The position numbers and the translations under genes were made by a program. The notes beneath the pieces are model-generated. The model did no database searches. It was not told the DNA's origin and saw only the letters and a list, made by a program, of their open reading frames with translations. Of a stretch of 38,370 nt of DNA, positions 2,060 through 26,565 are shown in pieces. Every line of letters begins with the position of its first letter. Position 1 is the first letter of the stretch. Origin of the DNA: Candidatus Moranbacteria bacterium CG06_land_8_20_14_3_00_40_12 (GTDB lineage Bacteria; Patescibacteriota; Minisyncoccia; Moranbacterales; UBA2206); NCBI GenBank assembly GCA_002780175.1, contig PEVT01000018.1:1-38370 (forward strand), written 5' to 3'.

Positions 2060-2992
2060 TCAGTCCAATATCTCCCGTTCGAAAGCCATGTAAGACAGCC
2101 GGATCAAGCCGATTCTAAGCAAAGAATAAAAAATAATATAAGCTAGGGCGATCCAGACATACAGCAAAACCGAACCCAGCGCCACTAAGGAAAAAAACAA
2201 CCCCGCGGCAACCGCTAAAAAAATAGGCGAAAAATTGCCTTGATTATTTTCCAAAGTGGGAAGAATGGCGACGATTTTTTGATTGATAATTTGAGAAATG
2301 ACGTCCATTATCTTTTCTTCTCCGCTCAAATAAATTCCGGCGATTTCCGACAGTTTTTTCCGGCTTTCATCCATGATCAGCGCCTGTTTCATTTCTTCCA
2401 GCGGCTCCGGCGCTTTGATGGCCGACGGATATTGATTTTCCGCGATAAACTGATCGACGGTTAAATTTTCTTCCTTGATTTTTTGAAAAGAAGGATTAAC
2501 CCTGGAAAGAACATTGAAAGTTATCGACTCGGCCATCCCTTCCAGTTTGAATTTTAAAATCGGATTGGCCATTTCATTTTTCTGCGAAACCAGATAATAA
2601 TGGCTGGCCACGGCAAAAGACCAGGCCAGAATAAACATTAAAGCTCCCGAGCGGATGATGCGGCGCAAATTTATTTTGCTGCCGTAAGCGATTTCCCCTC
2701 TTACCCGCCAAATTACCAGAAACTCTATAAGAAAACTGATGATATTGAAAATGGGGAAAAAGAAGAGCTCTCCCAAAAAAGAGCCCAGCGCCGTAAAAAA
2801 AATCAGATACTTGACTTTGATGACGGTTAAGTCCAAAAAAAATAAAGTCGCAAAAAGCGAAAACCAGATAATCGGCATGAGCCAGACGCTGGCCGCGGGA
2901 TTAATCATGGCCTGATCGACCGCCCGCCAAAACAACACGGAAAAAAGCAGCGTCAGGAAAGCCAGAGAATAATCTAAAATTTTTCTTTTCAT
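2060..2992 (-). CDS. Hypothetical integral membrane protein (310 aa)
   Basis: ATG ORF with about 6 hydrophobic helices at the N and C termini, flanking a soluble middle segment. I recognise no family. Confidence 0.55.
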   Translation of the reverse strand: MKRKILDYSLAFLTLLFSVLFWRAVDQAMINPAASVWLMPIIWFSLFATLFFLDLTVIKVKYLIFFTALGSFLGELFFFPIFNIISFLIEFLVIWRVRGEIAYGSKINLRRIIRSGALMFILAWSFAVASHYYLVSQKNEMANPILKFKLEGMAESITFNVLSRVNPSFQKIKEENLTVDQFIAENQYPSAIKAPEPLEEMKQALIMDESRKKLSEIAGIYLSGEEKIMDVISQIINQKIVAILPTLENNQGNFSPIFLAVAAGLFFSLVALGSVLLYVWIALAYIIFYSLLRIGLIRLSYMAFEREILD

Positions 2993-3052
2993 AATTTGAA
3001 TTTTACCACATTTCCCGTGCCGCGGTCGAGAGCGGTTGGTAATTTGAGCCGG

Positions 3053-3340
3053 TCAGACCTGAAAGCCGATGTTGTTTTTGGGAGCTTCCGATTCGGAAAT
3101 TTTGCCAAACTGCGTTTCGTATTTTTTTAAGTTTTCTTCCATCGCTTTCATCATTCTTTTAAAATGTCCAGGAGAGAGAATTACTCTAGAATTTAAGGTT
3201 CCAGTTGGAGGAAAAATATTGAGGAAATCCAGCACGAATTCTTCCTTAGTGTGCATAATTTGCATCATATTGGAATATTCCCCTCTTAATTTTTCATCGG
3301 TGGCTTTGATTTGAATTTGGCTTTGGTTTGGTTGGTTCAT
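3053..3340 (-). CDS. DUF3467-family small protein (95 aa)
   Basis: The motif series GEYSNMMQIMHTKEEFVLDF...SRVILSPGHFKRMMKAMEENLKKYETQFGKI matches my memory of DUF3467. Confidence 0.65.
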   Translation of the reverse strand: MNQPNQSQIQIKATDEKLRGEYSNMMQIMHTKEEFVLDFLNIFPPTGTLNSRVILSPGHFKRMMKAMEENLKKYETQFGKISESEAPKNNIGFQV

Positions 3341-3386
3341 AAAATTTATAGTTTATTGATTACAGGTTAATTATACACTAATTTTA

Positions 3387-3425
3387 AAAGGGTATCATTG
3401 GAAATTGAAATGATACCCTTTTTAT
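3387..3425. terminator. Bidirectional rho-independent terminator-like hairpin
   Basis: AAAAGGGTATCA-loop-TGATACCCTTTTT, with an A-run and a T-run on either side. It lies just downstream of the 73-aa gene. Confidence 0.55.
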
Positions 3426-3447
3426 TCGGCTTTTTACGGCATTGGGA

Positions 3448-4498: not shown

Positions 4499-6442
4499 TT
4501 ACTTCTTTTCCTCTTTCTTTTCCGTCTCCGCTTCTTTCGGAGCCTCTTTTTTATCTGCTTCGCCCGACGAAGCCTTGGCGGAGTCGGGGCCTGCCTGACT
4601 TTCCGCTGCTTTAGCGGAGGCGGCAGCTTTTTCGGCTTCTTGCGCCGCTTGGTAGAGCTTTTGGCCGATTTTTTGGGCTTCCTGTGAGAGCTCTTCGGTG
4701 GCTTTTTTGATGGCTTCAACGTCGGTGCCGTCCTTGACCTTCTTTAAGGCCTCTATTTTCTCTTCCACGGGCTTTTTCTCGTCCGGAGTAATCTTATCCC
4801 CAGCCTCTTTCAAAGCTTTCTCTGTGGTGAAAATGAGGGTATCAGCCATATTTTTGGTTTCCACCGCTTCCTTCTTTTTCTTATCTTCTTCGGCGTGCAA
4901 TTCCGCGTCTTTCTTCATTTTCTCAATTTCGTCTTTGGAAAGTCCGGTTGAAGCTTCAATCCTGATTGACTGCTCCTTGTTAGTCGCCCTATCTTTGGCT
5001 TTGACATTTAAAATGCCATTAGCATCGATATCGAAAGTCACTTCAATCTGTGGAATGCCGCGCGGCGCGGGCGGAATGCCGTCCAGAATAAATCTCCCGA
5101 GAGTTTTATTATCGGCGGCCATTTCCCGTTCGCCCTGCAAAACATTGATTTCGACCGAAGGCTGGCTGTCAGCCGCGGTGGAAAATATTTGTGATTTGGA
5201 AGTCGGCACCGTGGTATTGCGATTAATAAGCGGAGTGCGGACGCCGCCCAAAGTTTCAATGCCCAGTGTCAAAGGCGTAACATCCAAAAGCAAGATGTCT
5301 TTGACATTCCCCTGCAAAACGCCTCCCTGAATCGCCGCGCCGAGAGCCACCACTTCATCCGGATTAACGGTAATGTTGGCTTTTTGGCCGAAGAATTTTT
5401 CAACAGTCCGGATGACTAAAGGCATTCTGGTCATCCCGCCCACTAATACTATTTCATTAATATTGCTCACCGTCAGTTTGGCGTCTTCCAGCGCTTTTTT
5501 GGTCGGACCCAGTGTTTTTTCCACCAGATCGCCCACTAATTCTTCCAATTTGGCGCGCGTGATTTTCATCACCAAATGTTTCGGCCCATTAGCATCGGTC
5601 GTAATAAACGGCTGGTTGATTTCCGTTTCCTGGGCTGTCGAAAGTTCGATTTTGGCTTTTTCCGCCGCTTCCTTGACTCTTTGGAGCGCCATCGGATCTT
5701 TGCTCAAATCGATGCCTTCCTGTTTTTTAAATTCCGCGATAATCCAATTAATAAGAATCTGATCGAAGTCATCGCCACCCAAATGCGTGTCGCCGTTGGT
5801 GGATTTCACTTCCACTGTGTCGGCGGAAACTTCCAGAATGGAAATATCAAAAGTGCCGCCGCCTAAATCGTAAACCGCGATTTTTTCATCTTTCTTTTTA
5901 TTGAAGCCGTAAGCCAGAGCTGCGGCGGTCGGTTCGTTGATAATCCTTCGGACTTTCAGTCCCGCGATTTCACCCGCTTCTTTAGTGGCTTTCCTTTGCG
6001 AGTCGTCGAAATAAGCCGGCACGGTAATCACCGCTTCTTCGATTTTTTCGCCGAGCTTTTCTTCCGCGTCCGTTTTGAGCTTGGCCAAAATCATCGCTGA
6101 AATTTCTTGCGGCGAATATTCTTTGCCGCTCATCACGACTTTTACTCCGCCATTAGATTTGACGATTTTATACGGCATTAATTTTAAGTCTCTTTGCACT
6201 TCGGAATCGGTAAAAGCGCGTCCAATCAGGCGCTTGATGGAAAACAAGGTGTTTTCCGGATTGGTGACCGCCTGGCGCTTGGCCAAAAGCCCTACTAATC
6301 TTTCGCCATTTTTGGAAATGGCTACCATCGAAGGAGTGGTTCTGGCTCCTTCCTTGTTCTCGATAATTCCGGGCGAACCGCCTTCCACGATCGCCATCGC
6401 GGAATTGGTCGTCCCCAAATCGATACCTAGTATTTTGGACAT
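4499..6442 (-). CDS. dnaK: Molecular chaperone DnaK (Hsp70)
   Basis: Full-length Hsp70: [27 protein letters not shown], the substrate-binding domain, and an acidic/lysine-rich tail. Confidence 0.98.
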
Positions 6443-6574
6443 ATATTTATTTTAGCAATAATCCAGTAAATAATTTGCTGAATCACGCTTTAAAATTATT
6501 GATTACTTAATTAATTTCTAATTTTTAATTTTGTAACCTCGCCTAACGGCAGGCAGGTTTTAAAATAATTTTTT

Positions 6575-6695
6575 CCCCCTTTGTAAAAGGGGGCTGGGGG
6601 GATTTTTATTCCATTGTTTTTACAAATCCCTCCCCGCTTCGCTCGCCTCGCTAAAGCTTTGGCGGAGCGGGCGGGACTCCCTTTTCTAAAGGGAG
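6575..6695. repeat. Short (non-coding) copy of the KGG-hairpin element family
   Basis: CCCCCTTTgtAAAAGGGGG (6575-6593), GGGGGATTTTT, an AT filler, AAATCCCTCC, a GC-rich middle hairpin, and CTCCCTTTtctAAAGGGAG (6677-6695). In reverse orientation it aligns with the dus insert at 13147-13236. Confidence 0.7.
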
Positions 6696-6720
6696 AATTT
6701 TTTTAATTTAATTTAAAATT

Positions 6721-7650
6721 CTACTCCACTATAACTCTAGCCGCCCGGATGATTCTTTCTTCCATCCAGTATCCTTTGAGCGTTACTTTGGCTATTTTGT
6801 GCCGGCCTTCCTTCTCTTTTTCCTGCTGGCTGTTATGCACCGCTTCATGGATCCGCGGATCAAAATCATCGCCCGTTTTCGCTTCTATTTCCTTGACTCC
6901 GTTGTCTTCCAGAATTTTTTCCAATTGCTTTTGAATATACATAATGCCAATCACCCAGGGATTTTCCTTTTGGTCGGCCGGAATATGGTCGGTGGAAGCG
7001 TAAAAATTATCCAGGACCGGCAAAATTTGCATAATCAGGTTGAGCCCTGAATATTTGGCCAACTCCCATTGCAATGTTTCCTGCCTTTTTTTATAATTTT
7101 CAAAATCCGCCTGACAGCGCTTCCAACCTTCCAGATATTCCTCTTCTTTGGTTCTCTTTAGCTGGTTTTTTTCTAAATACTTTTTTATTAAATCAATCTT
7201 GCCCTTATCATCTTTCATAAGTTTTTCTTGCCGATAGTTATCTCTTAACATAAACTCATAAACTTTTAAGTATTGCTCGGGAGAAAGTTCTTTGAATTTT
7301 ATTCCTGTTAATTCAGATATTTCCAGTTCTTCAATTGAAATATCTGTCATTTCTTTCAATTCTTCTTCTTTTCCAAAGGCAATTCTTTCTTCTTCTCTTA
7401 TAAATTCATGCTCTTTTTCGTTTTCTAATTTAAAATTAATTTTCCCCATTAAAGCAATCAGCTTCTTCCATTTTTTATCCAGCCATTCTGCCGGAACAAG
7501 AAAATCTACATCTTGCGCTTGTTTAAATTCTCCGATTTTACGAAAGAGACCCACTGATCCAAAAAGAATTGGAATAATATCTAATTTATTTAATTCTTTC
7601 GTAACTTCCAAAAAAATTTCGAATTTCTTTTTATTTGCTTTTAATTCCAT
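6721..7650 (-). CDS. grpE: GrpE nucleotide-exchange factor with an about 165-aa N-terminal nucleotidyltransferase-like domain
   Basis: The C-terminal half is canonical GrpE (ADFENYKKR...LPVLDNF...FDPRIHEAV...KGYWMEERIIRAARVIV). The N-terminal half has a Pol-beta-type G-S-x-G ... D-V-D signature (LFGSVGLFRKIG...DVDFLV). It is one uninterrupted frame. Confidence 0.85.
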   Translation of the reverse strand: MELKANKKKFEIFLEVTKELNKLDIIPILFGSVGLFRKIGEFKQAQDVDFLVPAEWLDKKWKKLIALMGKINFKLENEKEHEFIREEERIAFGKEEELKEMTDISIEELEISELTGIKFKELSPEQYLKVYEFMLRDNYRQEKLMKDDKGKIDLIKKYLEKNQLKRTKEEEYLEGWKRCQADFENYKKRQETLQWELAKYSGLNLIMQILPVLDNFYASTDHIPADQKENPWVIGIMYIQKQLEKILEDNGVKEIEAKTGDDFDPRIHEAVHNSQQEKEKEGRHKIAKVTLKGYWMEERIIRAARVIVE

Positions 7651-7676
7651 TTTATTTTTTCTTTTTCATATTTTAT

Positions 7677-8426
7677 TTAAAACACCGCCTGCATTCCTCC
7701 TGCCACAATTACTATCACAGACGAACCGCTCAAAAGTTTCTTCATATAATCAATCAGTGATTTGTTCTTGGCGTATTTCATCCGCTTGGGACCGATAAGC
7801 GCCAATACCGCTTTTTCTCCGGATTTGGTTTTATAAGGAGAAACCAGCATGGAACAATTGGGCAGTTGCTTTAGCGGATTTTCCTTCCCGATAAAAATCC
7901 GGGTTTCGCCTTCTTTGACGCTTTTAAGTAAGACATCAATATTTTCATCGATATAATCCATAACATCCGCGATTTTGCAAAATTCATCCGAGTTTTTAAA
8001 TTCCGGATTTTCCAAAAGCTCGTGCATTCCGAAATCCGACAGGTCTTCTTTGCCGCCGCTGATGGCCAGACTGCCGGAAAGCGAAGACAGGAGTTTCGCC
8101 GTGGTGCGGGAAAGCCTGGTTTTTTGGGCGCGTAATTTTAAAATTTCCACCTGCAGTTTTTTCTGCTGGGCGAGCGTGAGTTTCTGCTCCGGCATGATTT
8201 TCTCCACAAAATAGCGGTAGCCTTTGTCCGTCGGAATGCGGCCGGAACTGATGTGCGGCTGGTATAAAAGACCCGCTTTTTCCAAATCGTTCATATCGTT
8301 GCGGATCGTGGCCGGGCTGATGCGCAGGCCGTATTTTTCACCCAGGATTTTCGAGCCGACCGGAATAGCCGTGTTGGTATATTCATTCACCACCGCCGCC
8401 AAAATTTTTTGCTGTCTTTGATTCAT
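7677..8426 (-). CDS. hrcA: Heat-inducible transcription repressor HrcA (short, 249 aa)
   Basis: N-terminal wHTH (RQQKILAAVVNEYTNTAIPVGSKIL...SPATIRNDMNDLEKAGLL.QPH.SSGRIPTDKGYRYFV). It sits in the hrcA-grpE-dnaK context with CIRCE upstream. Confidence 0.9.
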   Translation of the reverse strand: MNQRQQKILAAVVNEYTNTAIPVGSKILGEKYGLRISPATIRNDMNDLEKAGLLYQPHISSGRIPTDKGYRYFVEKIMPEQKLTLAQQKKLQVEILKLRAQKTRLSRTTAKLLSSLSGSLAISGGKEDLSDFGMHELLENPEFKNSDEFCKIADVMDYIDENIDVLLKSVKEGETRIFIGKENPLKQLPNCSMLVSPYKTKSGEKAVLALIGPKRMKYAKNKSLIDYMKKLLSGSSVIVIVAGGMQAVF

Positions 8427-8435
8427 AAAATTTTT

Positions 8436-8512
8436 GTCATTCCTGGTTTGACCAGAAATCCAGTAAATAAATTAATCTAGTTTGCTGGATCCCGCATCAA
8501 ATACGGGATGAC
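8436..8512. repeat. Composite palindromic element (GTCATTCC ... GGGATGAC) in the hrcA 5' leader
   Basis: Outer arms are GTCATTCC/GGGATGAC. Inner hairpins are CTGGTttgACCAG, ATCCAG...CTGGAT and CCCGcatcaaataCGGG. It shares the ATCCAGTAAATAA core with 6459-6488 and 9937-9960. Confidence 0.6.
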
Positions 8513-8528
8513 ACTTTATATAATCTTC

Positions 8529-8557
8529 ATTATATACACTCCTTTAGCAGTCGTCAA
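8529..8557 (-). promoter_or_regulatory. Putative sigma-70-type promoter of hrcA (-35 TTGACG, 17-nt spacer, -10 TATAAT)
   Basis: The minus strand reads CTTGACGACTGCTAAAGGAGTGTATATAATG. The -35 hexamer and the spacer overlap the CIRCE element. Confidence 0.55.
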
Positions 8558-8570
8558 GTCCGAGTGCTAA
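8544..8570 (-). promoter_or_regulatory. CIRCE operator upstream of hrcA-grpE-dnaK
   Basis: TTAGCAGTC-N9-GAGTGCTAA, one mismatch from the consensus and with perfect 9-nt spacing. Confidence 0.9.
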
Positions 8571-8668
8571 TCCTAGTTTAAGCAATTTCTATAAGCCTGT
8601 CAAGGGCCACCGCTTTAGCTTTTCTTCGCCGAAAAACAGAAGTTGCGCTTCTGCAAAATATACTCCTT

Positions 8669-8764
8669 GTCATTGCGAGAGAGCGTAGCGACCGTGGCAA
8701 TCTAAATAATAATTAATTAGATTGCTTCGCGGAGTTTATCCGCCTTCGGCGGGCTCGCAATGAC
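8669..8764. repeat. 96-nt palindromic element, family GTCATTGCGAG ... CTCGCAATGAC (copy 1)
   Basis: Terminal inverted arms are GTCATTGCGAG/CTCGCAATGAC, with inner arms GGCAATCTAA/TTAGATTGC. The 40-nt run TTAGATTGCTTCGCGGAGTTTATCCGCCTTCGGCGGGCTC plus the following GCAA is identical to copy 2 at 17613-17711. Confidence 0.8.
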
Positions 8765-8770
8765 ATATTT

Positions 8771-8801
8771 TAAAAAAATCCGCCTTTTGGGCGGATTTTT
8801 A
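8771..8801 (-). terminator. Rho-independent terminator of the lipoprotein gene
   Basis: AAAAAAATCCGCC-ttttg-GGCGGATTTTTATTTT. On the minus strand a T-run follows the stem. Confidence 0.7.
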
Positions 8802-8810
8802 TTTTCTGGC

Positions 8811-9464
8811 TTATAAACCGACGCCTTCCGGAATTTCCGGCATTTCCCCGCCGCCCGGAATTTTTATATCCTTAAAGTTATCCTGCATCTTTTTTATATT
8901 TTCCATTTGAACTTTCATCTGCTCGCACTGATCGGCAAACACGACTCCGGAAGGCAACGAGAAATCTATCGAAGCCACCGGCTGGCAATTAGCTTCGGGT
9001 GCGTCATCAAAAGCGTCCTCCCCCAAATCTTCCACTGACGGCAAATCTCTTTCTTCTCTCTTGGCCTCTTTTTCAGGAAAAATATCTTTGAGTCCTTCCA
9101 TGCATTTTATCGATATTTTTGTTCCAGTCTGGTTTTCTTCCGACCAGTTATACATCAGATCTTCGCCGTCAAAAAGGGAATAGCTTTTCTTGCCATCAAC
9201 GATTGTTTCTCCGCGGTATTTTTTGCCTTCCGTCCAAACTTTGGAAATGAATTTCTCTTTTCCGATTTCCATCTCGTAAGTGCATTCCATTTTTTGGCTC
9301 AAACCCATAGCGTCTTTAATGGAATTGACCACTTTGGATCCGGCGGACTCTTCCTTGTTTAGCCGGTTTGCGCCTCCATCTTGGCCGGTTTCCGATTTTT
9401 TTCCGCAACCGGAAAAAACCAGGACCACGGCAGTTAAAATTAACAGATAACTAATTTTTTTCAT
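8811..9464 (-). CDS. Putative lipoprotein (217 aa)
   Basis: Signal peptide with a lipobox, MKKISYLLILTAVVLVFSGC. The mature part is acidic and has no recognisable family. Confidence 0.7.
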   Translation of the reverse strand: MKKISYLLILTAVVLVFSGCGKKSETGQDGGANRLNKEESAGSKVVNSIKDAMGLSQKMECTYEMEIGKEKFISKVWTEGKKYRGETIVDGKKSYSLFDGEDLMYNWSEENQTGTKISIKCMEGLKDIFPEKEAKREERDLPSVEDLGEDAFDDAPEANCQPVASIDFSLPSGVVFADQCEQMKVQMENIKKMQDNFKDIKIPGGGEMPEIPEGVGL

Positions 9465-9560
9465 TTGTTTATAATTATTACTTATATCTAGAATAAATTA
9501 TATCAAAAAGAAGAAAAAATAAAAAGAGCCGGATATTCTAAAACTTTATAACTTTATAAA

Positions 9561-9794
9561 CTATTCTACCGGGTCATATCCCCCGTCATTCCAGGGATGG
9601 CAGCGGCTGATTCTTTTCAGCCCCAGCCAGCTTCCTTTTAAAACTCCGTATCTGTCGATGGCTTCATAAGTATACTGGCTGCAAGTCGGATGAAATCGGC
9701 AAAGCCTTTCCCCATAAAAAAACGATAACATTCCATGATCGAGGGAAAAAGTCTTTTGGTAGAATTTAATCAGAAACAAAGCCGCTTTTTTCAT
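9561..9794 (-). CDS. yidD: Membrane protein insertion efficiency factor YidD
   Basis: [10 protein letters not shown]...[34 protein letters not shown] is the YidD signature. The ATG at 9794 gives 77 aa. The longer track ORF (to 10133) runs through a repeat and overlaps corA. Confidence 0.85.
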
Positions 9795-9896
9795 AACTTT
9801 GATTAATTTTAACGCGAAGCAGATCTTTTTGTCAAAAAATCCTTTTACTGATAGAATAAAAGGCATGACCATATAAAATATTTGAGCATCTTCATT

Positions 9897-9960
9897 GTCA
9901 TTCCCGCGAAAGCCTTGCTTGCCGACAGGCAGGCGGGAATCCAGTAAATTAATTAATTTC
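9897..9960. repeat. Half-element of the GTCATTCCCG / GGGAATCCAGTAAAT family with an embedded GCAGGCAGG-type palindrome
   Basis: GTCATTCCCGCgaaagCCTTGCTTGCCGACAGGCAGGCGGGAATCCAGTAAATTAATTAATTTC, with hairpin ATTCCCGC...GCGGGAAT. Confidence 0.55.
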
Positions 9961-9993
9961 TGACAGATTATTTTAAAATATAAACATAAATAT

Positions 9994-10902
9994 ATGCAAG
10001 AAGTCCAATCGGAAAAAATAACCTGGATTAATTTTGAATCTCCCGGCGCGGATGATGTCCTATATCTGAAGAAAAATTTCGACCTGCACCCCCTGGTTCT
10101 GGAAGAATTTTCCACCCCCACTATCCGGCCCAAAGCCGCCGAATACGAAACCTGCCTTTATCTCACCATTCATATTCCGCTTTTTGATTTGGAATCGCGA
10201 ACCACTTATCCGGGAGAAATAGACATTGTAATGAATAAAAATACTCTGATTACCTCTCACACCAAGAAAATTCCCCAACTGGCTGATTTTTTTAATGAAC
10301 TAAAAACCGACCCCGCCAAAAGAGAACTCTACATGAATGAATCCCCGGGCGCCCTGCTGCGCTTCGTCATTGAAATGCTTTTTGAATCCTGCTTTCCCAA
10401 ACTGGATCATATTTCGGAAAAACTGGATTATATCGAAAAAGAAATTTTTGCCGGCCACGAAAAAGAAATGGTTTTTGAATTGTCTTTGGTTAAAAGAGAC
10501 ATTCTCAATTTCCGCCGCACCATGAAACCGCAGCGATCGGTTTTGGAGTCTTTGATAAAAACCGACTACCGTTTTATCGAGCCGGAACTTAAGCCTTATT
10601 TTCAAGATTTAATCGGCACCAATATCCGCATCTGGAATAACCTGGAAAGCACCAAGGAAACCATCGAATCATTGGAAGCCACCAATAATTCCCTGCTTTC
10701 CAACAAGCTGGATATGACGATGAAAGTTTTAACCCTCTTTTCGGCTATTATGCTTCCGCTCACGGTTTATTCCAATATTTTGGCTATGAGCGCGGAAATT
10801 CCTTTTGGCCGGAACCCTCACGGCTTCTGGATTCATTTAAGCATTATGCTTTTTATTTCACTTTTCACGATGACTATTTTTAAAATTAAAAAATGGCTCT
10901 AG
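9994..10902 (+). CDS. CorA-like divalent-metal transporter with a non-canonical AMS in place of GMN
   Basis: CorA architecture: a soluble N-domain, a long helical stalk and two C-terminal TM helices ([26 protein letters not shown] ... [16 protein letters not shown]). The signature position reads A-M-S. Confidence 0.75.
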
Positions 10903-10967
10903 GATAGCTTATAGCTTTTAGGTTATAGCTTATAGAATTTATTTTAGTTTTTAGTTTATGAAAGTTT

Positions 10968-12392
10968 ATGCTGAAAATATATAATACGCTGACAAAAAAG
11001 AAGGAGCAATTCAAACCGATCAATGAGGGTAAGGTTAGTTTATATACCTGCGGACCGACGGTTTATGATTTTGTCCATTTGGGCAATTTTAAATCATATC
11101 TTACCGCTGATATTTTACGCCGCTATTTGGAATATTCGGGCTATGAAGTGCGCCATATCAAAAATATCACCGATGTCGGCCATTTGACGGAAGACGATAT
11201 CGCTCAAGGCGATTCCGGCGAAGATAAGATTGCCCAGAAAGCCTTGAGTGAAAAAAAGACGCCCAAAGAAGTGGCTGATTTTTATGAGGAATATTTTAAA
11301 GCGGCGGAAAAAAAATTAAATATTTTGCCGGCGCATTATTTTCCCCGCGCCACCGCCCATATTCCGCAGATGATCAAAATCATCGAAAAGCTTCTGGAAA
11401 AAGGCCTGGCTTATGAAAAAAACGGCAATGTTTTTTTCGATGTCACCAAATTTCCGGAATATGGAAAACTTTCCGGCAATACTCTGAAAAATCTGAAAGT
11501 GGGCGCCCGCCTGGAGGAACACCCAGACAAAAAAAATCCCTGGGATTTCGCGCTGTGGCTCAAAGCCCCAAAAGTTCACCTGATGAAATTTTCTTCGCCC
11601 TGGTCGCTAGGTTATCCCGGCTGGCATATCGAATGCACCGCCATGAGCCTGGAATATCTGGGAGAAACCATTGACATCCATACCGGAGGCGAAGATAATA
11701 TTTTCCCCCACCACGAAGCCGAAATCGCCCAATCCGAAAGCTATACTGGCCAAAAATTCGTCAATTTCTGGGTACATACCCGTTTTCTTCTGGTCGACGG
11801 AGAAAAAATGTCCAAATCCAAGCATAATTTTTATAAACTGGAAGATGTTTTGGGGAAAGGCTTTTCACCGATGGAATTGCGACTGGCGCTGCTTTCTTCC
11901 CAGCATTGCAATCAACTCAATTTTAGCTGGAATCTTTTAAGCCAATCCCGGGCTAACCTGGAAAGTATTAATGATTTTTATACGCAATTATTTGCTTATG
12001 AGCCAAAAATCGAAGAAGCGAAATTGGCCAATTTTACGCTGGATGCTTACAAGCAGGAATTTACGGCGGCCATGGATGACGATTTGAATACGCCTAAAGC
12101 GCTGGCGGTAATCCTAAAATTAGTCAGCGACGGCAACAAGATGATGGCTGAAAAACTGCTGGGCAATCCGGCCGAAGTCAAATTACTGCTGGAAGATTTT
12201 GCCCAAGTTCTGGGCTTGATTTTGGAAAAAAGGGAAATTCCGGAGGAGATAAAACAGCTGGCCGAAGAAAGAAAAAAAGTGCGGGAAAACAAAGACTTTG
12301 CGTCTTCCGATGATTTGCGCCAAAAAATCGAAAAACTGGGATACTTGGTGGAAGATTCCAAGGATGGAGAGTATATTATAAAAAAGAAATAA
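10968..12392 (+). CDS. cysS: Cysteine--tRNA ligase
   Basis: Class I motifs HLGN (HIGH) and KMSKS, plus GWHIEC, with a typical length of 474 aa. Confidence 0.96.
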
Positions 12393-12397
12393 AACTT

Positions 12398-12868
12398 TCT
12401 CCCTTTTATAAAGGGAGATGTCCCGGAGGGACAGAAGGATTTTTATAATGTAATGCGATTATATTACAAACCGCATCTAAAAGATAACTCTCAAAAATTA
12501 AGAAAGACGATGACAGAATCAGAGGTTATCTTATGGAATAAGATTAGAAGAAAACAACTAAAAAATTTGCAATTCAATAGGCAAAAACCACTAGGAAAAT
12601 ATGTCGTTGATTTTTATTGCCCATTAAAAAAATTAGTTATTGAAATAGACGGCGGGCAACATTATGATAACGGGAAAATTACAAAAAAAGACCTAGAAAG
12701 AGAAAAATTTATTAAAGAAATACTTGGCTTAAAAATTGTCAGATTTACCAATATAGAAATAAAACAAAATCTAGCAAGCGTGATAGATAAAATATTGGAA
12801 ACATTAAAATAAAAATCCCCGTGAATACTGCGCCCGCTCGCATCCACTCCCCCTTTTTCAAAGGGGGA
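12398..12868 (+). mobile_element. Hairpin-bounded cassette carrying a DUF559 nuclease gene (candidate autonomous member of the KGG-hairpin element family)
   Basis: Left hairpin TCTCCCTTttataAAGGGAGA (12398-12418), GTCCCggaGGGAC (12420-12432), GGATTTTT (12437-12444), the ORF, AAAAATCCCC (12811-12820) and right hairpin TCCCCCTTTttcAAAGGGGGA (12848-12868). The short copies at 6575-6695 and 13147-13236 have the same end modules. Mobility is inferred, not shown. Confidence 0.45.
12453..12812 (+). CDS. DUF559 endonuclease-domain protein (Vsr-like PD-(D/E)XK fold)
   Basis: MTESEVILWNKIRRKQL...FNRQKPLGKYVVDFYCPLKKLVIEIDGGQHY...REKFIKEILGLKIVRFTNIEI is the classic DUF559 pattern. Confidence 0.85.
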   Translation: MRLYYKPHLKDNSQKLRKTMTESEVILWNKIRRKQLKNLQFNRQKPLGKYVVDFYCPLKKLVIEIDGGQHYDNGKITKKDLEREKFIKEILGLKIVRFTNIEIKQNLASVIDKILETLK

Positions 12869-12881
12869 AATTTATTATCTT

Positions 12882-14009
12882 ATGAAAAATTTTTGGCAAA
12901 AATTAAAAAAGCCAATTTTAGCTCTGGCTCCGATGGCCGGCATTACCGACAGCGCTTTTCGCTTGATTTGTCGGCGTTATGGCACGGATGTCGTTTATAG
13001 CGAAATGGCTTCGGCAAGCGCGCTTTACTACAAGCCGAAAAAAACTTTGGAATTATTAAAATTTAATCGGAAAGAACGGCCGTATGTCGTCCAACTTTTC
13101 GGAAAAAATCCCGAACATTTCGCCAAAGCAGCGAGAATTCTAGATTCTCTCCCTTTAGAAAAGGGAGAGTTGGAGAGGGATTTTCATCCAAAATTAAAAC
13201 AAAAATCCCCCTTAATCCCCCTTTTCCAAAGGGGGAAAATTTATAGGCCCGACGGCCTTGATATCAATTTCGGCTGCCCGGCCAAAAAAGTTTTTAATCA
13301 CGGTTCCGGCTGCGCTTTGATGTTGGATATCAAATTGACCCGGGAAATTATTGAAGCGGTTTTAAGGAACACTTCCCTGCCTGTTTCCATTAAAATCCGC
13401 GCCGGCGTCAAAAAACAAACTGCCTTGAATTTTATCAAGAAACTTAAAGATCTTCCCTTTCAAGCCATTATGCTCCATGGCCGGACTTATGAAGGCGGTT
13501 TTGGCGGTCCGGTAGATTTTGCTTTGGCGCAAAAAATCAAACAAAGCGTTCCGGAAAAAATCGTTCTCTTAAACGGCGGCATTACCGATCCCAAGCAAGC
13601 TCGAGAAATTTTAGACCAATACCCGCTAATTGACGGTTTAGGTATCGGCCGCGGAGTTTTGGGCCGGCCGTGGTTGTTTGAGGAAATCAAAAATCTCTTA
13701 CAAAATCCATCTCTCCTTATCAAGGAGAGATGTCGCGAAGCGACAGAGAGGTATAATTTCGAAAAAAATCACCCTGTTAAATCCCCACGAAGCGAGGTCG
13801 TCCGCCCACTGGCGGACGAATTTAACAGGGTAAAGAAAGTCATTATGGAACACGCTAAATTAATTTATAAAAACAAGCCGCGAACCGGGGCTTTGGAAAT
13901 CAGAAAACACTTGGCCTGGTATGTCCGCGGATTTCCCGGCGCTTCCGAAATGAGAAAGAAACTCGTGCGAACCGAAAGCTTGGAAGAAATAAAGCGAATT
14001 TTGAAATAA
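12882..14009 (+). CDS. dus: tRNA-dihydrouridine synthase (Dus) with two in-frame repeat-derived insertions
   Basis: LAPMAGITDSAFR, VQLFG, DINFGCPAKKV, IKIR, HGRT and GIGRG..GRPWLF are Dus TIM-barrel motifs. Two extra segments (about aa 90-122 and about aa 277-318) are encoded by palindromic repeat DNA. Confidence 0.9.
   Translation: MKNFWQKLKKPILALAPMAGITDSAFRLICRRYGTDVVYSEMASASALYYKPKKTLELLKFNRKERPYVVQLFGKNPEHFAKAARILDSLPLEKGELERDFHPKLKQKSPLIPLFQRGKIYRPDGLDINFGCPAKKVFNHGSGCALMLDIKLTREIIEAVLRNTSLPVSIKIRAGVKKQTALNFIKKLKDLPFQAIMLHGRTYEGGFGGPVDFALAQKIKQSVPEKIVLLNGGITDPKQAREILDQYPLIDGLGIGRGVLGRPWLFEEIKNLLQNPSLLIKERCREATERYNFEKNHPVKSPRSEVVRPLADEFNRVKKVIMEHAKLIYKNKPRTGALEIRKHLAWYVRGFPGASEMRKKLVRTESLEEIKRILK
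13147..13236. repeat. KGG-hairpin element copy inside dus (insert 1, in frame)
   Basis: CTCTCCCTTtagaaAAGGGAGAG (13147-13169), GGAGAGGGATTTT, an AT filler, AAAAATCCCCC and TCCCCCTTTTccaAAAGGGGGA (13216-13236). It is translated as LPLEKGELERDFHPKLKQKSPLIPLFQRGKIY. Confidence 0.7.
13710..13830. repeat. Second palindromic element inside dus (insert 2, in frame)
   Basis: TCTCTCCTTatcAAGGAGAGA (13710-13730) and TGTCGCgaaGCGACA (13731-13745) parallel the left end of the DUF559 cassette. A long hairpin ACCCTGTTAAAT...ATTTAACAGGGT (13771-13830) follows, with inner CGTCCGCCcactGGCGGACG. Confidence 0.6.
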
Positions 14010-14086
14010 AAAAAGAGGTGACTGGTTTTATTGACTGTATTTTTGCTACCCTTTAGAAAAACTTTTGGATTATTTCGAATATGAAA

Positions 14087-14127
14087 AGGAGCAATAATTG
14101 ACTAGGCAATCATTGCTCCTGTTTTTT
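14087..14127. terminator. Bidirectional terminator between dus and the convergent 62-aa gene
   Basis: AGGAGCAAT-N16-ATTGCTCCT followed by GTTTTTT on the plus strand and TTTTCAT on the minus strand. Confidence 0.65.
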
Positions 14128-16538: not shown

Positions 16539-16666
16539 CCGCCTTAGCGTAGTAAAGCGTCAAAAATTCGAGACGATGCAAGCGTAAAAAAACTTCTCTT
16601 TTAGCGTAAGCGTTTTGAGAAGTTTTAGCGAGCGAGTCCGAATTTATCGCTTTACGAGCTGGGCGG
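16539..16666. repeat. 128-nt nested palindrome (family AGCGTAAAAAA ... TTTTAGCGAGCGAG), copy 1
   Basis: Outer arms are CCGCCTTAGCGTAGTAAAGCG/CGCTTTACGAGCTGGGCGG, and the inner hairpin is AAAACTTCTC...GAGAAGTTTT. The right arm supplies the last codons and the stop of the 315-aa gene. Confidence 0.65.
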
Positions 16667-17599
16667 CCTTTTTTCTTTTCTACCGCTTTTCTTTTGGGCA
16701 AAAGAAAAGCGGGAAAGAATTAATTCTGACTTTTCCTTCTTGGATAATCGCTTAATCCGATATTCTTCTTTAGAGGCCGCTGACCGATTACGGAATTTTT
16801 TGGCATAAACTAATCTAACTGGTCGGCGGGCGGCAGTATACTTAGAGCCCAGCTGGGAAGAATTATGCTCGCGTATCCTTCTTATTAAATCCACTGTAAT
16901 ACCCGTATATAAAGTCTTATCTCGACATTTGAGAATATACAAATAATAACGCTTATTCTTACCGCTACTGGGATTATTTTTGCCTTTCTCCGGCTTCCAT
17001 TCTGTTATCTTCCCCGCTTCAATTTCAATTGGTTCGGCTTTTCGCAAATTCCGGATTTGTTTCTGATTTAAAATTGGAAAGTGCTTGACTTCGACCAGAT
17101 ATTCCGGGATATAATCAATTTCTTCTTTCGTCGTCATCCAGCCCAATTTATCAAAACGTTTGAGATTGACCGCCGGCGAAAAGCTCCGTAAATTTTTCCG
17201 GCCCCGGTTGTCCAGATATTCATGAAAATAACTCATTGCCAGTTCCCGCAAAGAATTATAAATCGGCTCCCGATAACGCAACGCAGCGTGATTAGTCTTG
17301 GAAATAGCGCCCCATCGGCCGTCTTTTTGGTAAACCGCGACCACATGGTCGAAATCATTTTTATTAGCCGTCAAGTCCAGCACCAGCGGCGGATAGCCCT
17401 GGACGCGCAAAGCCAAAGCGGCCAGCGCCGCGCCTTCCGTGCAATGGCAAGTCTTTTTTTCCAACACTGACATCGGCGATAAATTAGTTTCGCCTTTTTT
17501 TTCAAAATTCATCGGCATCCGGTTAAGAAAATTTTGAATTTTAGCCGGAGTGTTTAATTGCCTTAAAATTTTCAGTTCTTTTTTTTCTAATCCAAACAT
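16652..17599 (-). CDS. Fusion protein: N-terminal transglutaminase-like Cys-His domain plus C-terminal GIY-YIG nuclease domain
   Basis: C-terminal aa 217-293, RYYLYILKCRDKTLYTGITVDLIRRIREHN...RPVRLVY...EEYRIKRLSKKEK, is the GIY-YIG (UPF0213-like) pattern. The N-terminal CHCTEGAALAALAL...DFDHVVAVYQKDGRWGAISKTN resembles a papain/transglutaminase-fold Cys...His core. The family assignment is from memory and has lower certainty. Confidence 0.7.
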   Translation of the reverse strand: MFGLEKKELKILRQLNTPAKIQNFLNRMPMNFEKKGETNLSPMSVLEKKTCHCTEGAALAALALRVQGYPPLVLDLTANKNDFDHVVAVYQKDGRWGAISKTNHAALRYREPIYNSLRELAMSYFHEYLDNRGRKNLRSFSPAVNLKRFDKLGWMTTKEEIDYIPEYLVEVKHFPILNQKQIRNLRKAEPIEIEAGKITEWKPEKGKNNPSSGKNKRYYLYILKCRDKTLYTGITVDLIRRIREHNSSQLGSKYTAARRPVRLVYAKKFRNRSAASKEEYRIKRLSKKEKSELILSRFSFAQKKSGRKEKRPPSS

Positions 17600-17612
17600 T
17601 TTTTATCCAATT

Positions 17613-17711
17613 GTCATTGCGAGCCCTGAAAGAGCGTGGCAATCTAATTAATATTTAAATTTATTAGATTGCTTCGCGGAGTTTATCCGCCTTCGGCGGG
17701 CTCGCAACGAC
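17613..17711. repeat. 99-nt palindromic element, family GTCATTGCGAG ... CTCGCAACGAC (copy 2)
   Basis: It has the same termini as 8669-8764 and matches it at 46 of 47 nt in the right half. It fills the spacer between mnmA and the start of the GIY-YIG fusion gene. Confidence 0.8.
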
Positions 17712-17746
17712 ATAAAATAAAACTTTTTTAATATAATAATGAAAAA

Positions 17747-24245: not shown

Positions 24246-24276
24246 TTGTTTTTTCTGTCCATAATCCCGATAGATT

Positions 24277-24302
24277 CCCCGCCTTGCCTGCCGGCAGGCA
24301 GA
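24277..24302. repeat. CTGCCTGCCGGCAGGCAG-type palindrome directly upstream of rpoA
   Basis: CCCCGCCTTGCCTGCCGGCAGGCAG contains a perfect 18-nt palindrome. Related copies lie at 26531-26565, 9913-9937 and 6536-6560. Confidence 0.7.
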
Positions 24303-26450: not shown

Positions 26451-26530
26451 ATAAATAATTAGCGTTAATCCGGAATAAAATCCGGAGTTTATTTCTTTGG
26501 AAAGCCGCGAGATATTAACCAGCAAGCTTG

Positions 26531-26565
26531 CCCGCCCTGCCTACCGGCAGGCAGGCTCTGGCGGG
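26531..26565. repeat. Nested palindrome CCCGCC-CTGCCTACCGGCAGGCAG-GCTCTGGCGGG upstream of infA
   Basis: Outer arms are CCCGCC/GGCGGG, around a member of the CTGCCNNCCGGCAGGCAG family. The outer arms are shared with 22850-22873 (CTTGCCCGCCgtctttGGCGGGAG). Confidence 0.65.

Follow-up and report, generated by a model that had tools for sequence, protein, structure and literature searches.

The spacer between cysS and dus in a contig of Candidatus Moranbacteria bacterium CG06_land_8_20_14_3_00_40_12 (PEVT01000018.1; its first 38,370 nucleotides, the whole stretch analysed here, are called the window) evidently holds a discrete cassette which has moved between loci and lineages. Its hairpin and inverted-repeat modules are cis-acting ends, and its sole gene codes for a small PD-(D/E)XK nuclease of the Vsr fold, annotated as DUF559. 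We consider it probable that this cassette is a mobile unit which is spread by its own nuclease by way of the hairpin ends and DNA repair.

The cassette lies downstream of cysS (10968-12392) and upstream of dus (12882-14009) and fills the spacer except for 5 nt at its left and 13 nt at its right edge. The modules follow each other in the order left terminal hairpin (HP1), small GC hairpin, GGATTTTTAT, open reading frame (ORF), AAATCCCC and right terminal hairpin (HP2); coordinates are given in Table 1. A preliminary description had regarded the spacer as one organised unit, and each module it listed is found at its position. In every copy HP1 is set apart from HP2 by one compensated pair (T-A versus C-G), which makes the ends distinguishable. 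With up to 3 mismatches allowed, the pattern TCYCCCTTTNNNAAAGGGRGA has six matches in the 38-kb window against 0.13 expected, and none of 100 shuffled sequences reached six. The six matches are three pairs, 6574/6676, 12398/12848 and 13148/13216.

The same cassette at unrelated loci

The three closest homologues of the DUF559 protein are 69-76% identical in amino acid sequence, and all are located elsewhere than between cysS and dus. One gene is positioned between atpF and atpH within an ATP synthase operon (P0002, 69%), one follows a UvrD helicase gene (P0009, 76% over 84% of the query) and one is upstream of smc (P0014, 72% over 84% of the query). At all three loci the order of the modules is identical to that of the window cassette. 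When the cassettes of the window and of the contigs L175, L176 and L179 are aligned, similarity starts at the first base of HP1 and stops at the last base of HP2. In L175 the cassette begins 1 nt past the atpF stop codon in the atp operon.

Among these four cassettes the ORF is 70-76% identical at the DNA level, third codon positions 47-61%, and dN/dS is 0.05-0.13. The terminal modules are 88-100% identical. The non-coding left module accounts for the lower value (88%), with nearly all differences confined to loops; AAATCCCC is 100% and HP2 95% identical, and the flanks just outside drop to about 45%. By this conservation the cassette ends, better preserved than synonymous sites, are functional, selected sequence.

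A different picture emerges in syntenic relatives. L091 and L092 keep the order hrcA-yidD-corA-cysS-dus-dnaB-recR, yet their cysS-dus spacers are AT-rich, about 115 nt long and devoid of hairpins and DUF559; no canonical hairpin was found anywhere in their 15 kb. Empty junctions, proposed earlier as a check on mobility, therefore exist. The exact window protein is encoded on 16 contigs (Crystal Geyser samples and one Moranbacteria-type assembly), uniformly as cysS-DUF559-dus.

Pairs of closely related units give indications of recent movement. The units of L139 and L145 are 95% identical and have unrelated flanks, and in the pair L160/L169 the break falls within the HP1 loop. Units which are 99% identical follow groEL in L109 (3650-4480) and in L112 (143-973); the last ~95 nt of groEL are near-identical too, and further upstream groEL diverges. 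This single case looks like a tract of co-conversion or recombination. In L035 (5930-7200) two DUF559 cassettes, whose proteins are 93% identical, are 770 nt apart with a truncated copy of the 5' end between them and a duplicated downstream flank. Independent insertion was rejected for this pair, which is a segmental tandem duplication.

A perfect TATAAT is present at 12444-12449, 3 nt before the ATG of the DUF559 gene, and a Shine-Dalgarno sequence is missing. A simple promoter scan did not call this hexamer because it has no -35 element. The mRNA of this gene may be leaderless.

Copies without the gene and insertions in dus

The window contains further copies which have no ORF. Two shorter elements with the same module order had been pointed out in the preliminary description. 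The module order holds; overlooked was that the element at 6574-6696 is reversed and that the one at 13148-13236 is in frame in dus. The former has its HP1-type hairpin at 6676-6696, is co-directional with grpE and dnaK and retains GGGATTT and ATAAAAATCCCC. The dus copy also keeps the ATAAAAATCCCC stretch, but the TAA of the cassette reads CAA here and hence the dus frame stays open. Of a supposed fourth element at 13710-13830 the left part stands, i.e., HP1 and the small hairpin are shared, whereas the rest (13771-13831) is a different palindromic repeat. Peptides akin to this latter repeat (NYDFxKIHPVK...EFNRV) are present in P0144 and twice in P0179. The Rfam scan of 6400-14100 yielded no family at gathering score; the long hairpin at 13147-13237 matched microRNA precursors below that score, and these matches were discarded as spurious.

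The insertions are apparent at the protein level. The window Dus has 375 aa versus 309-316 aa in most orthologues, and its Pfam Dus match is split in two. The excess consists of the two in-frame palindromic insertions at surface-loop positions, 13148-13236 and about 13710-13831. The 30-aa insertion encoded by the miniature copy (SLPLEKG...PLFQRGK) is missing from the closest orthologues (77-80% identical); three orthologues at greater distance (L093, P0134, P0138) have it at the same site. Between the window and L093, HP1 (23 nt) and CTTAA plus HP2 (26 nt) match completely, at a Dus protein identity of only 65%. Empty dus alleles read GTCACCGAAAAAATCAAG at the insertion site. The Dus proteins of other Moranbacteria carry different insertions at both sites; thus several repeat families share these loops as hotspots. 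A 358-aa variant of Dus (P0127) was considered as a population polymorphism and rejected, as it reflects a different start call.

Two ORF-less elements are present in other atp operon spacers of L175. They retain 15 nt of the cassette leader of their own genome, GGGATTTTTATAAAT, and about 18 nt of the 3' end of the ORF, TTTAAGATAAAAATCCCC. By these remnants the short elements are internal-deletion derivatives of the ORF-bearing cassette. [quoted passage not shown] In this related Patescibacteria contig the element family occupies altogether three ATP synthase operon spacers (1939-2045, 2981-3430 and 4578-4669).

Association of hairpins and DUF559 across phyla

Counted as a hairpin in the surveys was any perfect stem which is 7 bp or longer and whose left arm consists of pyrimidines only. 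The genome set comprised 80 species-representative genomes with homologues 38-56% identical, from Patescibacteria, Chloroflexota, Zixibacteria, Thermodesulfobacteriota, anammox Planctomycetota, Nitrospirota, Ignavibacteriota, Bacteroidota, Coxiella and Acinetobacter. Within 150 nt of the gene a hairpin was present upstream in 53, downstream in 57 and on both sides in 41 of the 80. The upstream hairpin ends at a median of 28 nt before the match, the downstream one starts at a median of 10 nt after the stop codon. A metagenome set of 80 independent loci gave similar counts, 46 upstream and 45 downstream. Thus, pyrimidine-arm hairpins are located on each flank of stand-alone DUF559 genes in about 60-70% of the 160 loci. 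The flanks first seen in the window also occur at other DUF559 genes, in the clade and in many other phyla. Other intergenic regions of the same loci contained a hairpin in only 25 of 559 cases (4.5%); the possibility raised in the preliminary description that hairpins are equally frequent next to arbitrary genes does not apply, because they are more than 10-fold rarer there. Among DUF559 homologues from viral contigs, the best 11 of 24 relatives, which were used as a negative control, a single one had a canonical hairpin, and phages are not the obvious vector of the cassette.

Hairpin type tracks the clade of the DUF559 protein. Protein identity is 50% within a hairpin class versus 44% otherwise, a difference matched in 0 of 500 permutations. 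Metagenome loci have variant arms such as CCCCTCCTT/AAGGAGGGG and CCCTCTCCC/GGGAGAGGG. An inner GGGAT.../...ATCCC bracket is found on both sides of the ORF at 43 of 134 loci versus 1.5% of control positions. A GC-rich lineage from the human gut displays the complete architecture, small hairpin included; the latter is present also in L175, L176, L179 and the L093 miniature copy. In one public human-gut metagenome contig (L157) positions 1-48 are a Nextera adapter (AGATGTGTATAAGAGACAG), and the apparent left junction is an artefact. The arms of a common hairpin class (in L094-L173), CCTCCTT/AAGGAGG, are an anti-Shine-Dalgarno paired with a Shine-Dalgarno sequence; AAAGGGGG would likewise pair with the 3' end of 16S rRNA, via one G.U.

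The genes next to the cassettes vary profoundly: 243 flanking proteins fall into 222 clusters, and a conserved partner gene is thus lacking. At 92 of 106 loci the gene upstream is co-directional. ORF-less three-hairpin elements of the same design exist in Thermodesulfobacteriota, Geobacter and WOR-3 loci, and of 64 distant hairpins in other phyla, 17 are inside open frames of at least 250 aa. Hairpins turn up in predicted proteins, too. Over-long predictions, drawn from the 150 best cluster representatives of a library of 1.84 billion proteins, have translated hairpins (PPFxKGG, PLxQRG) in their extensions in 29 of 80 cases, and GGI or GDF, translated from GGGGGATT, often comes next.

The DUF559 protein

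The ORF matches Pfam DUF559 (PF04480) with 115.2 bits over residues 9-118 (gathering cut-off 20.6). In this Pfam search no match to Vsr was obtained, only DUF559 and a sub-threshold MTES_1575. D53, E64, D66 and H70 are invariant among 36 homologues. The family is large, with 21,245 clusters at 50% identity matching at E<=1e-3. Its sole solved relative by sequence is PDB 3HRL from Neisseria gonorrhoeae (profile match E=9e-28), a protein with no described function. Despite family size and solved structure we know of no function for DUF559.

An AlphaFold2 model of the protein (mean predicted local distance difference test, pLDDT, 88) was compared with known structures by Foldseek. 3HRL ranked first, followed by the catalytic domain of the homing endonuclease I-Bth0305I (PDB 3R3P), which is thus the closest characterised structural neighbour; sequence identity to it is only 17-19%. 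Further down were the Vsr-like domains of AbaSI and PvuRts1I, and Vsr itself ranked 15th. The NCBIfam equivalog YcjD was matched, but well below its cut-off. No transposase match was obtained for the cassette ORF with PHROGs, NCBIfam and PADLOC. PADLOC reported weak partial matches limited to the catalytic core, namely the nuclease domains of a methyl-directed restriction enzyme and of DpdF; membership in a defence system was rejected on these grounds.

The ycjD locus of Escherichia coli

YcjD is a DUF559 protein of 117 aa, 35% identical to the window protein. In E. coli K-12 (L174, NC_000913.3 1351040-1351830) a partial second copy of the 3' end of ycjD lies behind the gene. A GC-rich hairpin repeat with a pyrimidine and a purine arm is also located 3' of ycjD and is dispersed in the genome. 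The repeat differs in sequence from HP1 and HP2; the comparison covered the YcjD protein and the adjacent hairpin. Presumably this repeat is BoxC, which was first described next to envM (fabI). For BoxC 22-32 copies were reported (PMC2267715). According to a 2026 paper, ycjD occupies the position of the eefRABCD operon between fabI and sapF, and there were at least two losses of eef (PMC12817139).

ycjD is a single-copy gene present in 3378 of 5426 complete E. coli genomes (62%). A 91-nt query built on the adjacent repeat matched a median of 16 places per genome. In a spread sample of genomes, 12-26 places were found with a full ycjD locus and 1-13, many of them 1-5, without it, a contrast which is confounded by phylogroup. 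The ycjD-positive and ycjD-negative lineages are a tractable model for comparison.

How the cassette may spread

We propose the following route. The nuclease would recognise its own pyrimidine-arm/purine-arm hairpins, be it as palindromic duplex, as extruded cruciform or as single-strand hairpin, and would then nick or cut there. Repair or recombination at the break would copy the cassette elsewhere in a homing-like gene conversion, aided by the common end modules. The same activity acting in trans could propagate or maintain ORF-less copies in the manner of MITEs, which are tolerated in frame in genes such as dus. We infer that binding or cleavage of the hairpins by the DUF559 protein drives the spread. 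A lone PD-(D/E)XK nuclease cuts DNA but has no strand transfer activity and cannot itself join strands. Consequently, a homing or repair-mediated route is more plausible than classical cut-and-paste transposition.

Three rival explanations were weighed. DUF559 could be a passenger: the palindromic element would spread via host recombination, replication slippage at hairpins or an unlinked transposase, and the nuclease would confer some other advantage, e.g., addiction, repair or a restriction-like defence. Solo hairpins and ORF-less elements away from DUF559 genes fit this notion, as do the lacking strand-joining activity, the PADLOC matches and the presence of a GIY-YIG protein elsewhere in the window (16652-17599). 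Yet these PADLOC matches are weak and cover the catalytic core only. DUF559 is the sole protein consistently tied to the hairpins among highly diverse neighbours, hairpin type co-varies with its clade as expected of a hairpin-reading protein, and the single ORF of a 470-bp element usually is the element's own enzyme. We regard a passenger role as unlikely.

A slightly poorer case can be made for a domesticated instead of selfish system, reminiscent of the RAYTs treated below, in which a single-copy, mostly vertically inherited DUF559 nuclease maintains hairpin repeats of use to the host, e.g., for mRNA stability, for termination or for genome structure; its gene would then be situated among its substrates. 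This idea draws on the fixed locus of single-copy ycjD amid some 16 dispersed repeats, on the invariable site of the exact window protein, on the prevalence of co-directional upstream genes, which recalls the location of repetitive extragenic palindromic (REP) sequences at gene 3' ends, and on terminator-like scores of HP2 (plus strand) and HP1 (minus strand). It is difficult to reconcile with closest homologues at unrelated loci, empty sites in syntenic relatives, proteins 45-56% identical scattered over many phyla and the patchy ycjD, which replaces the eef operon. The simplest proposal, an ordinary gene with regulatory hairpins acting as terminators, insulators or operator, the other repeats being coincidental, is contradicted by the results and highly improbable. 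The outer hairpins pass a loose terminator scan and the spacer does lie between two co-directional genes. However, the same hairpin sequence is kept across unrelated phyla next to DUF559 homologues, copies are in frame within coding genes including dus itself, the cassette ends are sharp and common to four unrelated loci, the window has far more matches than expected, and ORF-less copies contain remnants of the ORF. A simple terminator reading of the outer hairpins was set aside on account of the copies inside dus and the cross-phylum conservation.

Spread by the cassette's own nuclease has to face a number of observations which weigh against it. Besides the lack of a joining activity, our literature search returned no enzymatic test of the DUF559 family. 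No direct repeat common to the flanks of seven elements was found which could represent a target-site duplication, nor was a target consensus found at the insertion sites; the left flanks have a final T, and most right flanks open with AA. About 30-40% of DUF559 flanks are without a perfect canonical hairpin, and some DUF559 genes (L048) only adjoin an ORF-less element. The acting-strand count of one-mismatch hairpins, T.G 4 versus C.A 5, comprises too few cases. The copy-number contrast in E. coli suffers from the phylogroup confounding. The cysS-dus site is filled on all 16 contigs with the exact protein and shows no polymorphism, i.e., no sign of current activity in this population. Finally, the end modules survive insertion, so that a cassette, unlike in classical homing, would not be immune to its own nuclease.

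If the nuclease does drive the spread, the cassette represents a new element design with a Vsr-fold nuclease as sole protein, hairpin ends and in-frame miniatures, which is absent from current classifications. More tentatively, and with considerable reservation, we suggest that stand-alone YcjD-like DUF559 proteins might serve a pan-bacterial, so far overlooked class of palindromic mobile elements as their dedicated nucleases. To this class would belong hairpin-bounded cassettes and miniature copies of them, translated into peptides of the form PPFxKGG..GGI. Repeats which have long lacked an explanation, such as the BoxC-like one of E. coli, would then be non-autonomous derivatives, and the lifestyle of REPs and their associated tyrosine transposases (RAYTs) would have been invented a second time, independently, with a PD-(D/E)XK nuclease. 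The link to one hairpin family across phyla provides a testable hypothesis for DUF559, namely that the hairpins are the substrate of the nuclease. Such a class would also explain many spurious N- or C-terminal extensions of predicted proteins (SPFxKGG, PLFQRG and similar) and insertions in conserved enzymes of reduced genomes, e.g., of Patescibacteria.

Comparison with known systems

By analogy, the cassette would most resemble REPs, including REP doublets forming hairpins (REPINs), with their RAYTs, and a MITE family with its parent, although it fails both defining enzyme tests. As in REP/REPIN-RAYT systems there are short dispersed palindromic repeats, a dedicated nuclease gene with its own repeats on the flanks, co-variation of repeat type and enzyme clade, often a single enzyme gene for many repeats (ycjD) and a placement of repeats at gene 3' ends. 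RAYTs, however, are HUH tyrosine transposases of the IS200/IS605 type, whereas DUF559 is a Vsr-fold PD-(D/E)XK nuclease. Its hairpins have pyrimidine-only left arms and lack a GTAG/CGTC tag, gene and ends move together as a cassette between loci and phyla, and copies are in frame in genes. With MITEs the elements share terminal inverted repeats common to long and short copies (HP1 plus GGGATTT versus AAATCCC plus HP2), short copies without ORF which derive by internal deletion from an ORF-bearing one of the same genome, and several copies per genome. Unlike MITE parents the cassette has no recognised transposase (DDE, HUH, serine or tyrosine), target-site duplications were not seen, and its ends form local hairpins of their own.

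Free-standing homing endonuclease genes are comparable in that a small nuclease gene is the sole cargo, with I-Bth0305I as second-best structural match, in the presence or absence at one site among relatives (cysS-dus and the dus site) and possibly in the near-identity tract into a flanking gene (L109/L112, one pair only). They differ in that the DUF559 ORF is separate from its neighbours with no intron, intein or ribozyme (Rfam, 6400-14100), the end modules persist after insertion, and the insertion sites are many and unrelated. Rickettsia palindromic elements are palindromes of about 90-150 bp which are in frame in housekeeping genes and leave them intact, as here in dus (PMC10969869). They are confined to Rickettsia and have no known enzyme (PMC10969869), in contrast to the ORF-bearing parent and the many phyla reported here. 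Vsr belongs to the same fold superfamily, and some sources annotate DUF559 homologues as Vsr. Apart from the Pfam assignment to DUF559 and the low Foldseek rank of Vsr, the neighbours are cysS and dus and no dcm-type methyltransferase. QMITE1/2 of Coxiella were rejected as relatives because size and tags differ. An integron-cassette/attC reading was dropped, as the cassettes are single, the sites scattered and hairpins present at both ends. In full-text literature searches we found no description of an association of hairpins and DUF559.

Features and other repeats of the window

Table 1. Positions of the DUF559 cassette, its modules and related or neighbouring repeats in the window.
Feature	Position	Strand	Remarks
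Complete DUF559 cassette	12398..12868	+	~470 bp; four-cassette alignment, empty spacers in relatives
HP1, left terminal hairpin TCTCCCTTT-tat-AAAGGGAGA	12398..12418	+	Stem invariant in four cassettes, loop varies
Small GC hairpin TGTCCC-gga-GGGACA	12419..12433	+	Fold
Inner inverted repeat, left arm GGATTTTTAT	12437..12446	+	Motif part GGATTTTT = 12437-12444
DUF559 ORF, 119 aa, Vsr-like PD-(D/E)XK nuclease fold	12453..12812	+	Pfam PF04480, E=1.7e-33
Inner inverted repeat, right arm AAAAATCCCC	12811..12820	+	Overlaps ORF stop codon; 100% identical in four cassettes
HP2, right terminal hairpin TCCCCCTTT-ttc-AAAGGGGGA	12848..12868	+	95% identical in four cassettes
ORF-less miniature copy, 89 nt: HP1, GGGATTTT, 17-nt loop, AAAATCCCC, CTTAA, HP2	13148..13236	+	In frame in dus
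ORF-less miniature copy, 123 nt, between grpE and dnaK	6574..6696	-	Larger GC hairpin replaces small one
Partial left end: HP1-like TCTCTCCTT-atc-AAGGAGAGA and small hairpin TGTCGC-gaa-GCGACA	13710..13745	+	In frame in dus
Unrelated palindromic repeat ACCCTGTTAAAT ... ATTTAACAGGGT, inner GTCGTCCGCC/GGCGGACGA hairpin	13771..13831		z=-8.9; in frame in dus

The window contains additional repeats. A third family has two copies of about 105 nt with TGTCATTGCGAG/CTCGCAATGACA ends, at 8667-8775 and 17609-17722, which are 92% identical in the D6 core; mean column identity over a wider alignment is 84%. Both copies are intergenic, on the side of minus-strand genes. Short GC-rich palindromes with the core GCCTGCCGGCAGGC are located at 24261-24301, 26514-26554 and 6540-6560.

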